From: Acidilobaceae archaeon
Lineage (GTDB): Archaea > Thermoproteota > Thermoprotei_A > Sulfolobales > Acidilobaceae
NCBI GenBank assembly: GCA_038897215.1
Contig: JAWAWX010000001.1
Coordinates: 480,001-544,000 of the forward strand
Length of the DNA stretch: 64,000 nucleotides
Direction: 5' to 3'
The notes under the pieces are model-generated. The model was not told the DNA's origin. It did no database searches and saw nothing but the letters and a program-made list of their open reading frames with translations. Shown one piece after another: positions 2,226 to 56,373 of the stretch (its first letter is position 1; every line of letters starts with the position of its first letter). The translations under genes and the position numbers were made by a program.

Positions 2226-2350
2226 GCCGCCGTAGCTCAGCCTTGGTTAGAGCGCCGGACTCATACGGCCCCCACAGCCCGGGGTCGGGAGCCGATAAGG
2301 GGGCCTGGGGGATCCGGAGGTCCCGGGTTCGAATCCCGGCGGCGGCACCA
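2226..2350 (+). tRNA. tRNA-Met(CAT), probably elongator, with a 46-nt intron at 37/38 (2266-2311) and encoded CCA
   Basis: GCCGCCG/CGGCGGC acceptor stem, CCGGA-CT-CAT-A, TTCGAATC T-loop. Canonical BHB: CTCA/TGGG helix, TAC and GGA bulges, GGCCCCC/GGGGGCC intron stem. Confidence 0.93.
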
Positions 2351-4590: not shown

Positions 4591-4691
4591 TGGAGCCGCC
4601 GGCGGGATTCGAACCCGCGACCACCGGCTTACAAGGCCGGCGCTATCGGCCCGCGCAGGCTCTCAGGTCTACCGGGCTGAGCTACGGCGGC
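4591..4691 (-). tRNA. tRNA-Thr(TGT) with a 24-nt non-canonical D-arm intron (4645-4668)
   Basis: Reverse complement GCCGCCGTAGCTCAGCCCGGTAG[ACCTGAGAGCCTGCGCGGGCCGAT]AGCGCCGGCCTTGTAAGCCGG...TTCGAATCCCGCCGGCGGCTCCA. Removing the insert restores the cloverleaf. Confidence 0.9.
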
Positions 4692-53644: not shown

Positions 53645-55012
53645 CTAGACTCCTATCTTCGGGAGGTATGAGAGGTCTATCTCTTGAGGCTCGTAGTCAA
53701 CTAGAGTTCCCTCGAGATACTCTAGGTATCCTTGAAGATCTAGGAGCCCGTGTCCGCTGAGATTAAAGAGGATTACCTTCTTCTCTCCTGTCTTAGCGAT
53801 CTCTCTCGCTAAGTCCATAGCTGCCTTCACGGCGTGAGCGCTCTCTGGAGCGGGGACTATGCCCTCTGCTTGAGCGAAGATCTTCCCGGCTTCGAAGACC
53901 TCTGTCTGGTGGTATGCTCTAGCCTTCACGTAGCCTTCGGCTACAAGGAGGCATAGGCTTGGAGCATCTCCGTGGTATCGCAGTCCTCCAGCATGAATTG
54001 GCGGGACTCTGTACTTGTGGCCCACGGTGTACATCTTGAGGAGTGGTGTTAGCTGTGCCGTGTCACCGTAGTCGTACGCGTAGACTCCCCGGGTTAGAGA
54101 GGGGCACGCTTTAGGCTCTACGGCTATAAACTCTATGTCTTTCCTCCCTCTTAGTCTAAGCTCCATGAATGGATAGGATAGTCCCGCGAAGTTGCTCCCT
54201 CCTCCTACACATCCTATTACGTAATCGGGAAGCTCTTCGCCGATTAATTCCAGTTGTTTGATAGCCTCTAGGCCTATTACTGTTTGATGGAGGAGAACGT
54301 GGTTTAATACACTTCCCAGACTATATCTAGCCTTCTCGTCTGACAACACGTCCTCTATGGCCTCCGATATAGCTATGCCTAGACTGCCGGGATTATCCGG
54401 ATCTTTCTCGAGTATGCTTCTCCCTACTTTAGTGTAGGGCGAGGGGCTCGGCACTACCTCTGCTCCATAGAGCTCCATCAAGACTCTTCTGTAGGGTTTC
54501 TGCATGTAGCTAGACTTAACCATAAACACTCTAACCTTGATGTCGAAGAGAGCGCCAGCTAGAGAGAGCGCTGAACCCCATTGCCCAGCTCCTGTTTCTG
54601 TAGCTAGCCTCTCGACACCCTCCTCTTTATTGTAGTATGCTTGAGCTACCGCTGTATTCACCTTGTGGCTACCTGTAGGCAGAACCCCCTCGTACTTGAA
54701 GTATATTCGAGCAGTTGTGCCTAGAAGTCTCTCGAGTCTTCGAGCTCTAATGAGAGGCGTTGGCCTCCCTAGCTCTATCAAAACCTCTCTGACAGCCTCT
54801 GGTATCTTGATGTAGCGCTCTTGAGAGACCTCTTGCCGGACAAGCTCTCTAGCGAAGAGTCTGTAGAACATCTCGATAGGCGCTGGCTCACCGCTCGGTA
54901 GGAGAGGTGGAGGCAACGGTCTAGGAAGGTCCGGGACTATGTTATACCAGTATTCTGGGACTATCTCCTCAGCTTGAGGAGCCCTACGGAACCTTCTTAG
55001 AGTTAAATCCAT
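53645..55012 (-). CDS. trpB2: Tryptophan synthase beta chain 2
   Basis: [47 protein letters not shown]. Confidence 0.96.
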
Positions 55013-55076
55013 TGGCTCAAAGAAGCCACCTCTCTGCTCTAAGGCCTAGCTGAGAGAGAGCACCTTAAAAACGTTT

Positions 55077-55141
55077 CGGTCAACCCTTTGACCCTACATC
55101 AGCAGCAAAACGCCTCAGACTATGTCGGCTCTATCATCCCG
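55077..55141 (-). ncRNA. Box C/D guide sRNA with variant C (AUGAUAG) and D (UUGA) boxes; D' guide antisense to the 23S peptidyl-transferase loop
   Basis: CGG-G-ATGATAG-AGCCGACATAGT-CTGA-GGCG-TTT-TGCT-G-CTGATGT-AGGGTCAAAGGG-TTGA-CCG. Both K-turns are in register, guides are 12 nt, and a TTAAA box lies about 25 nt upstream. Confidence 0.78.
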
Positions 55142-55269
55142 CCTATACTAAACTAAACTAAAGCCTTTAAGAGTCCTCTATGAAGGGTTTGAATGCTCCG
55201 GATAGCGATGCGAGCAACGAGGTAATAGCGCTAGCTCTTAAGAAGCGACAAAAGAGTTAGAGCCCAGCC

Positions 55270-56373
55270 ATGTATGTAATCGGGGGTGTCAGGGGTCTGG
55301 GCTCAAATGAGATAGTATGGCTTGATGCGTCGACGCCTAAACGGCTCCTCCTATCAGCAAGTCTGGCGGAAATCCTGAGAGCTAGAGGCTTCAGACCACT
55401 CGTCACGGTTAGGAGTTATGATTATAGCTTAATGATGTTGCCTAAGCTAGGAGTCCACGACTACATCGTCGTGGGGGTACATGGAGGAGGAACGCTCAAA
55501 GGAAAGCTTGTAGCCGATATTGGGCGAATGATAGACCTCATACCTGTCTTAGAGGATAAGAATGTAGTTGCTCTCATATCCTACCCCTCGCCTCCAGCTG
55601 TGAGGGTAGCATACGGTCTCGGGATACCCTATATCGCTATGGGAGATACCCCGCATGGAGAAGCAATGAATAGACTCTCTTACCCTCTAGCTAGAGTCGC
55701 CATACTGAGCGAATTCATAGCGGAGGATTTGGCTAAATACTTCCTCAAAGACTTCACAGTGATAGAGACCTACAGGGGGGTAGACGAGCTTCTCTGGGTG
55801 AAGAGATTCGAGTGTAACAAACATGAAGAAGATGTCACAGAAGCGGGTTTGAAGCCTTTAAGCTATGTAGTGCTAAGACCGGAGGAGTTCATGGCTCACT
55901 ACTATGACCGTAGAGGAGAGAGCATAGTAATCAAGCTAAGCGAAGTAGTGCTAAGTGAGGGCTATACGCCCGTCGTACTGCCTAGGTACGAGAGTCAGTT
56001 GATTGAAGTCAAGTCCATGAAGGGAGTCAAGGTCATCGAGAAGCCGATACTAGGACCTGCTCTCGAATGCCATGCTGTAGCCGTGGTCACGGGCGGGATA
56101 ACCATGGCTAGAGAAGCTGCACTACTAGGAGTCCCGGGCATATCGGTTTTCTCTAAACCAATAAGGATAGACGTAAAATTAGCAGAGCTAGGGTTACCTA
56201 TATCGTATGCTAGAGACTACGAGGAAGCCTCCTATATCTTGAGAAAGATACTCAGAGACCCCGAAAGCCATAGAGTAGAGTCTCGGAAACTCATAGAATC
56301 TCTAGAGACTCCAGAAAGCAAGGTGGTAGCGTGGGTTGAGGCTTTAGCCTCCGAGGCTAAGAGATCGAGGTGA
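55270..56373 (+). CDS. DUF354 family GT-B glycosyltransferase-like protein
   Basis: IVWLDASTPK, GVHGG, DTPH, YRGVDE, VLRPEE, GGITMAREAALLGVP. Confidence 0.85.
   Translation: MYVIGGVRGLGSNEIVWLDASTPKRLLLSASLAEILRARGFRPLVTVRSYDYSLMMLPKLGVHDYIVVGVHGGGTLKGKLVADIGRMIDLIPVLEDKNVVALISYPSPPAVRVAYGLGIPYIAMGDTPHGEAMNRLSYPLARVAILSEFIAEDLAKYFLKDFTVIETYRGVDELLWVKRFECNKHEEDVTEAGLKPLSYVVLRPEEFMAHYYDRRGESIVIKLSEVVLSEGYTPVVLPRYESQLIEVKSMKGVKVIEKPILGPALECHAVAVVTGGITMAREAALLGVPGISVFSKPIRIDVKLAELGLPISYARDYEEASYILRKILRDPESHRVESRKLIESLETPESKVVAWVEALASEAKRSR

Follow-up and report, generated by a model that had tools for sequence, protein, structure and literature searches.

The minus strand of the window (the 64,000-nt stretch of DNA analyzed here, G000:C1:480001-544000, from the 1.16-Mb single-contig genome of a hot-spring archaeon) carries, at positions 55141-55077, a complete box C/D sRNA gene that was confirmed to be real and conserved. 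The reading we favor, with a probability of about 0.8, is that the gene encodes an independently transcribed archaeal double-guide box C/D sRNA of ~65 nt, which would be the local member of the class-wide Sac-sR103 family. That this RNA is of an ordinary kind, and of a family already known, is well supported. What sequence comparison adds is the placement of this genome's gene in the Sac-sR103 family and the covariation evidence that this family, published as an orphan, targets helix 89 and nucleotide 2504 of 23S rRNA. Nothing is changed in the understanding of how C/D sRNAs work. The genome, in which Rfam finds none, gains a non-coding gene that is well supported and for which the targets of both guides are assigned.

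Read on the minus strand, the gene opens with the 5′ half of a terminal stem (CGG, 55139-55141), which pairs with the 3′ half at its other end (CCG, 55077-55079). Enclosed by this stem are, in order, a variant box C (ATGATAG instead of the consensus RUGAUGA; 55131-55137), the 12-nt D′ guide (55119-55130), box D′ (CTGA; 55115-55118), a 12-nt D′-C′ spacer with the potential to form a short hairpin (GGCG/TGCT; 55103-55114), box C′ (CTGATGT; 55096-55102), the likewise 12-nt D guide (55084-55095), and a variant box D (TTGA instead of CUGA; 55080-55083). The A at position 6 of box C pairs with the T at position 1 of box D, and the first base of box D′ pairs with position 6 of box C′. The stem, box, and guide elements listed in the first-pass annotation were therefore all present on the minus strand and in the order given there. 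The predicted fold of the RNA was no more stable than that of shuffled sequences (z = −0.4), which is expected for the C/D class and hence uninformative. In the minimum-energy fold, GGUCAA within the D guide (55084-55089) forms a 6-bp hairpin with its complement UUGACC, which comprises the D box and the 3′ stem (55078-55083); this hairpin may be a by-product of the target resembling box D plus stem.

The gene is flanked by elements that could account for its own transcription. A TATA-like element (TTAAAGG, 55164-55170, minus strand), also claimed beforehand as a box upstream of trpB2, is centered ~25 nt upstream of the 5′ stem, where it would act as the promoter. Together with its flanks (CTTAAAGGCTT) it was found at equal distance in the genome of the same genus, G001, and A/T-rich boxes lie at comparable distance upstream of other homologues. 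Between this element and the 5′ end of the sRNA (55142-55163, minus strand), three tandem TTTAG pentamers are followed by TATAG. Beginning 5 nt past the stem, a run of five T residues (55067-55071, minus strand) probably serves as the archaeal terminator of the sRNA and may at the same time belong to the TATA-like box of the next gene; in G001, a T5 run likewise occurs a few nucleotides past the stem. That next gene, downstream of and separate from the sRNA (53645-55012, minus strand), encodes a TrpB-like, PLP-dependent enzyme (TrpB2; Pfam PALP; NCBIfam NF009057, 704 bits; TIGR01415, 697 bits), as the earlier assignment had it. On the other flank lies a gene for a DUF354 protein (55270-56373, plus strand). 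Elsewhere in the window, the tRNA matches at 2226-2347 (plus strand) and 4594-4691 (minus strand) measure 122 and 98 nt, respectively, which is above standard tRNA size; both presumably contain introns.

The conservation of the gene was assessed initially by a BLAST-level search of 40 relatives. The part comprising box C and the D′ guide was matched clearly in several genera, and the matched loci proved to be complete homologues with both guides conserved. A covariance model (R1) was built from nine homologues, with no Sulfolobus sequence among them. When applied to the genome of origin, R1 returned the sRNA as the single match in 1.16 Mb (77 bits, E = 1e-16). Matches were obtained in 92 of 121 genomes sampled from the order, mostly as one copy each, and in 85 of 121 genomes of a class sample, including nine of ten genomes that represent three families outside the order; in two further families of this sample, there was none (0/7 and 0/9). 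Both sets are samples, and a genome without an R1 match is not to be equated with absence of the gene. Across the family, the 12-nt guide spacing is retained, and the length of the D′-C′ spacer ranges from 0 to 40 nt. GC-rich spacer hairpins occur within the same taxonomic family, and the spacer is nearly absent (~3 nt) in the large-genome family to which S. acidocaldarius belongs. Among the homologues, the internal kink-turn or kink-loop is very plastic. In those of one genus (G014 and G024), boxes D′ and C′ are separated by an inserted GC-rich stretch of ~40 nt. At gathering scores, Rfam gave no match of a C/D family to the sRNA locus; at permissive thresholds, the best hit was the nematode ceN40, whose 11 bits against a threshold of 35 and E value of 10 render it meaningless.

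The boxes themselves carry a record of compensatory change. In the C/D kink-turn, the two sheared G·A pairs and the U·U are followed by a Watson-Crick pair, which is formed by position 6 of box C and position 1 of box D. Among 55 homologues, these two positions read G-C in 43, C-G in 7, A-U in 3, and U-A in 2, and were never unpaired. Because all four Watson-Crick types of this pair occur, the kink-turn is supported and the "variant" boxes of the present sRNA are to be regarded as compensated: both are off consensus together, A-U replacing G-C, and the bases of the tandem GA/GA pairs are intact. The description of these boxes as variants was accordingly right in that both depart from the consensus but overstated, since the departure is a compensated Watson-Crick change of an ordinary kink-turn. 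Position 1 of box D′ and position 6 of box C′ were paired in 53 of the 55, with two-sided changes in nine, and the three pairs of the terminal stem changed on both sides across the homologues, 82% of cells being paired. For the five modelled pairs together, 89% of cells were paired compared with 57% in column shuffles, none of 500 of which reached 89%; when the partner was slid out of register, at most 60% of cells were paired. The alignment from which these percentages derive was fitted to R1, which favors structure; the pair types hold regardless.

Both guides find their partners in the organism's own 23S rRNA. The single 23S gene spans the junction of the circular contig (1157309-1159524, continuing from 1 to ~950), and both guide targets therefore lie at genome positions 558-595 (the D′ target itself at 585-595), outside the window, as had been anticipated for the rRNA. 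The E. coli numbering was verified with the help of the E. coli row and the ruler that Additional file 3 of PMC4644070 provides. The D′ guide (E. coli 2503-2511), extended by the last base of box C, which reaches C2512, forms 10 contiguous Watson-Crick pairs with genome positions 586-595, equivalent to E. coli 2503-2512. Beyond these, an A·G mismatch at guide position 3 (G2502) is followed by one more pair at position 2 (C2501). The N+5 nucleotide is genome position 587, the equivalent of U2504, and lies inside the contiguous duplex. The claim that this guide is antisense to the peptidyl-transferase strand with U2504 at N+5 thus holds for the organism's own 23S rRNA.

The D guide, for which no target had been named, forms Watson-Crick pairs at 10 of 11 positions with genome positions 558-568 (E. 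coli 2475-2485). This segment, 25 nt upstream of the D′ target, comprises the tip of helix 89 and the beginning of its 3′ strand. The one exception is an A at guide position 6 opposite C2480; N+5 is genome position 562, the equivalent of U2479. The double-guide proposal was hence correct with regard to D′ and is completed by a helix 89 target for D that had been missed. As the D guide has this clear target, the RNA is an ordinary double guide. Both duplexes lie in colinear, antiparallel fashion on a single rRNA strand with 17 nt between them, which is the normal geometry of archaeal double guides. It had also been suggested that the C′ box pairs with the adjacent 5′ rRNA segment and thereby brackets the target. 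This could not be upheld: the match is limited to GAUGU/ACAUC (5 bp), it disappears in relatives whose rRNA reads ACCUC or whose C′ box differs, and C′ is a kink-turn box bound by protein. The bracketing of the rRNA is done by the D guide, not by the C′ box.

The pairings exceed what shuffled guides achieve. Against the organism's own 16S and 23S rRNA, the observed pairing was reached by 25 of 5,000 shuffled D′ guides and by 55 of 5,000 shuffled D guides, and a relaxed joint event, with both guides pairing within 100 nt, occurred in 6 of 5,000 shuffles. According to the scoring of Lui et al (2018; PMC6009581), the double guide attains ~38 by our own arithmetic compared with a threshold of 32. 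The alignment of both guides to the organism's rRNAs and tRNAs, which the first-pass annotation had recommended, thus placed both within one 40-nt stretch of 23S rRNA and left no credible tRNA target: across the 48 tRNAs, pairing never exceeds 10 of 12 guide bases, nor does any single tRNA pair with both guides. In several relatives, the 23S rRNA is interrupted 30-50 nt past the 3′ side of the D′ target (about E. coli 2534-2553) by insertions of 44 nt (G001), 57 nt (G030), and ~690-780 nt (G009, G010, and G031); the present genome has none there. These insertions are probably rRNA introns.

Guides and rRNA were then compared across 20 genomes for which both sequences were available, and the guides alone across the 55 homologues. 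Positions 4-11 of the D′ guide were paired in all 20 genomes, position 5 always by a Watson-Crick pair. In the three genomes with C2504 (G028, G038, and G095), D′ guide position 5 is G instead of A. Natural U2504C variation in Thermoprotei has been described in a 2024 preprint (10.1101/2024.11.12.623245), and it is this variation that the D′ guide tracks. For the D guide, positions 4, 5, and 9-11 were Watson-Crick paired in 20 of 20 genomes, and positions 4-11 were paired throughout except for the position-6 A opposite C2480 (seven genomes) and one mismatch at position 8. In the genus analyzed here (G000 and G001), the rRNA has U for A at 2478, and D guide position 4 is A for T, as in no other of the 55 homologues. 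Taken together, the alignments point to at least two independent compensatory events between guide and target, one of them at the predicted methylation site. N+5 was Watson-Crick paired in 20 of 20 genomes for both guides.

Position 3 of the D′ guide, two positions away from the target nucleotide, is A in 55 of 55 homologues; in each of the 20 genomes it is opposite G2502. The A opposite C2480 in the D guide, adjacent to its target nucleotide, is confined to a subclade of the organism's own family (7 of 20 genomes). Position 3 of the D guide is paired in all seven of these genomes compared with 3 of the 13 others, which gives the impression that the duplex has grown on its box D side as compensation; the seven genomes are kin, and this is an observation rather than a test. 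Mismatches so near the target may reduce or abolish methylation.

Mechanistically, the sRNA would assemble with L7Ae, Nop5, and fibrillarin. Its D′ guide would pair with 2503-2512 of nascent 23S rRNA in the peptidyl-transferase loop. Its D guide would bind 2475-2485, a segment that lies 17 nt to the 5′ side and belongs to the tip and 3′ strand of helix 89. According to the N+5 rule, this arrangement would direct 2′-O-methylation to the equivalents of U2504 and U2479. Pairing at both 23S sites is well supported by the sequence comparisons; expression in this organism, protein binding, and methylation are inferred. The components are encoded in the genome: the genes for fibrillarin and Nop5 are adjacent (426076-427565), and genes of the L7Ae family are found at 950677 and 546077. 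A scan with a strict box pattern identified six other canonical C/D sRNA candidates, all with rRNA complementarity of at least 8 bp, which argues that the organism uses the C/D system. Duplexes of 8-10 bp support high methylation in vitro according to Yang et al (2016), as cited in PMC7089733; the conserved 8-bp cores of the present guides would on that account be long enough.

Methylation of the U2504 equivalent is, in our judgment, somewhat more probable than its absence. With regard to the U2479 equivalent in this lineage, we lean slightly against methylation because the A·C mismatch adjoins the site. As helix 89 cannot close when both guides are bound, the RNA probably also acts as a transient folding clamp. 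Nucleotide 2504 is pseudouridylated in bacteria and governs the binding of antibiotics to the peptidyl-transferase center (PTC). SNORD49, with 28S C4426, was considered as a possible eukaryotic counterpart and dropped. In the literature, no map of 2′-O-methyl sites at the equivalents of U2504 and U2479 was found for this organism or its order, and the P. furiosus RiboMeth-seq paper gives no sites. Three hot-spring metatranscriptomes from the same study contained no reads on 54700-55599, the flanking genes included, and hence provide no test of expression.

The mismatches invite the explanation that the sRNP acts as a chaperone only, pairing with both 23S segments during assembly and holding helix 89 and the PTC strand apart, while methylating neither nucleotide, or just one, owing to the mismatches. 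The invariant A·G at D′ position 3, the A·C at D position 6 in the subclade, and the retention of just the 8-bp core (positions 4-11) by both guides are all compatible with such a role, and conserved pairings thought not to methylate have been described (PMC6009581; PMC4644070). The published cases, however, mismatch at N+5, the very position that is Watson-Crick paired in every genome compared here, for both guides, and at which a compensatory change has re-established pairing in the genomes with C2504. Duplexes of this length also suffice in vitro in the work cited above. A chaperone-only role strikes us as unlikely.

That the true targets are other RNAs (mRNA, tRNA, or other non-coding RNA) and the rRNA matches incidental is very improbable. 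The D′ guide does have a perfect 12/12 complement on the sense strand of an open reading frame (genome 1038484-1038495, minus strand), and pairing with rRNA does not account for the conserved bases at D′ positions 2-3. By our own arithmetic, ~0.14 such 12-mer matches are expected in the 2.3 Mb of both strands, so that a single one is close to chance; the D guide has no perfect 12-mer partner comparable to it, and the candidate was therefore rejected as a target. The tRNAs offer nothing better, whereas both guides match one 40-nt stretch of 23S rRNA and co-vary with it. Still less can the locus be taken for box-like motifs assembled by chance or for a defunct gene copy without expression, even though box C and box D are both off consensus and Rfam does not recognize it. 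A single-copy homologue detected with E = 1e-16, guides conserved in more than 90 genomes, compensatory changes in the boxes, a guide that followed a lineage-specific change of the rRNA, and a promoter-like box and T-run kept in the sister genome are difficult to reconcile with either.

The double-guide reading can be carried one step further, albeit tentatively: the sRNA may be an ancient, class-wide assembly factor of the PTC, in which two deliberately short 8-bp duplexes clamp the tip and 3′ strand of helix 89 and nucleotides 2503-2512, a ribose methyl group is placed on 2504, and the A opposite G2502 is functional. If so, this A would not reflect drift but would, for example, limit the stability of the duplex or position the substrate, and the published orphan Sac-sR103 would gain a target. 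Even without this step, the co-variation of both guides with 23S rRNA makes S. acidocaldarius, which is open to genetics, a concrete system in which to ask whether a nucleotide of the catalytic center is modified or chaperoned by a guide. It also connects the evolution of the guides with the natural PTC variation that has lately been reported from Thermoprotei.

The link to a known RNA rests on a match of R1 in the genome of Sulfolobus acidocaldarius (G065:129966-130021, minus strand), which is Sac-sR103 letter for letter. It was found at 35 bits (E ~1e-6, local search), with both guide cores aligned in the same order. Dennis et al (2015; PMC4644070, Additional file 1) place Sac-sR103 at position 130023 of the negative strand and count 25,932 RNA-seq reads for it; the family is therefore expressed, and abundantly so, in at least one species. 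Its targets are given there as "NP / NP," that is, none predicted, under a criterion of nine contiguous Watson-Crick pairs (PMC4644070). The guides of Sac-sR103 stay below nine contiguous pairs, whereas the D′ duplex of the present sRNA, with 10, would pass. The two RNAs share the order of boxes and the guide cores, CGACATAG in D′ and GGGTCGAT/GGGTCAA in D. Sac-sR103 differs in that its boxes are canonical, its D′-C′ spacer is almost absent, its D′ duplex contains a G·U pair, and position 6 of its D guide is G where the present sRNA has A.

Other published sRNAs resemble the present one in part. Ignicoccus hospitalis sR204 has a guide with GCCGACAT and a predicted methylation at U2778, equivalent to E. 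coli U2504 (PMC4644070). Its other guide, in contrast, targets G2744 (E. coli 2470) and not 2475-2485, and its PTC guide pairs through G2502 without an A·G mismatch. R1 does not detect sR204, and it matched one of eight genomes in the family of small genomes that probably contains I. hospitalis. Thermoproteus tenax sR150 (sR50 and T50 in the target table and alignment of PMC4644070) is a double guide that bridges the same two rRNA segments, its guide GGGTCGATGG being predicted to methylate U2753, equivalent to E. coli U2479 (PMC4644070). Here, however, the order of the guides is swapped, with the helix 89 guide in the D′ position, and the other guide is shifted by 5 nt (E. coli 2509) and matches the divergent PTC sequence of that lineage. 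In Sac-sR11 of S. acidocaldarius (PMC4644070), the D′ guide GGGTCGATGT pairs with the same helix 89 segment, but in a register displaced by one, so that the predicted site is A2752 (E. coli A2478), and the second guide is unrelated. Both Sac-sR11 and TtesR150 carry the same helix 89 guide core, GGGTCGATG, as their D′ guide (PMC4644070, Additional file 1), and this shared core suggests that guides may have been transposed or duplicated between sRNA genes.

The stretch between E. coli 2470 and 2512 is a published hot spot for archaeal guides (PMC4644070). With the archaeal double-guide C/D sRNAs in general (Omer et al, 2000; PMC4644070; PMC6009581), the present sRNA has in common two 12-nt guides directed to rRNA sites less than 100 nt apart, the N+5 rule, a terminal and an internal kink-turn, and targets clustered around the PTC. 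It does not differ from them in kind but stands out in two respects: D′ position 3 is invariably mismatched, and both guides are conserved unusually widely, across the class.
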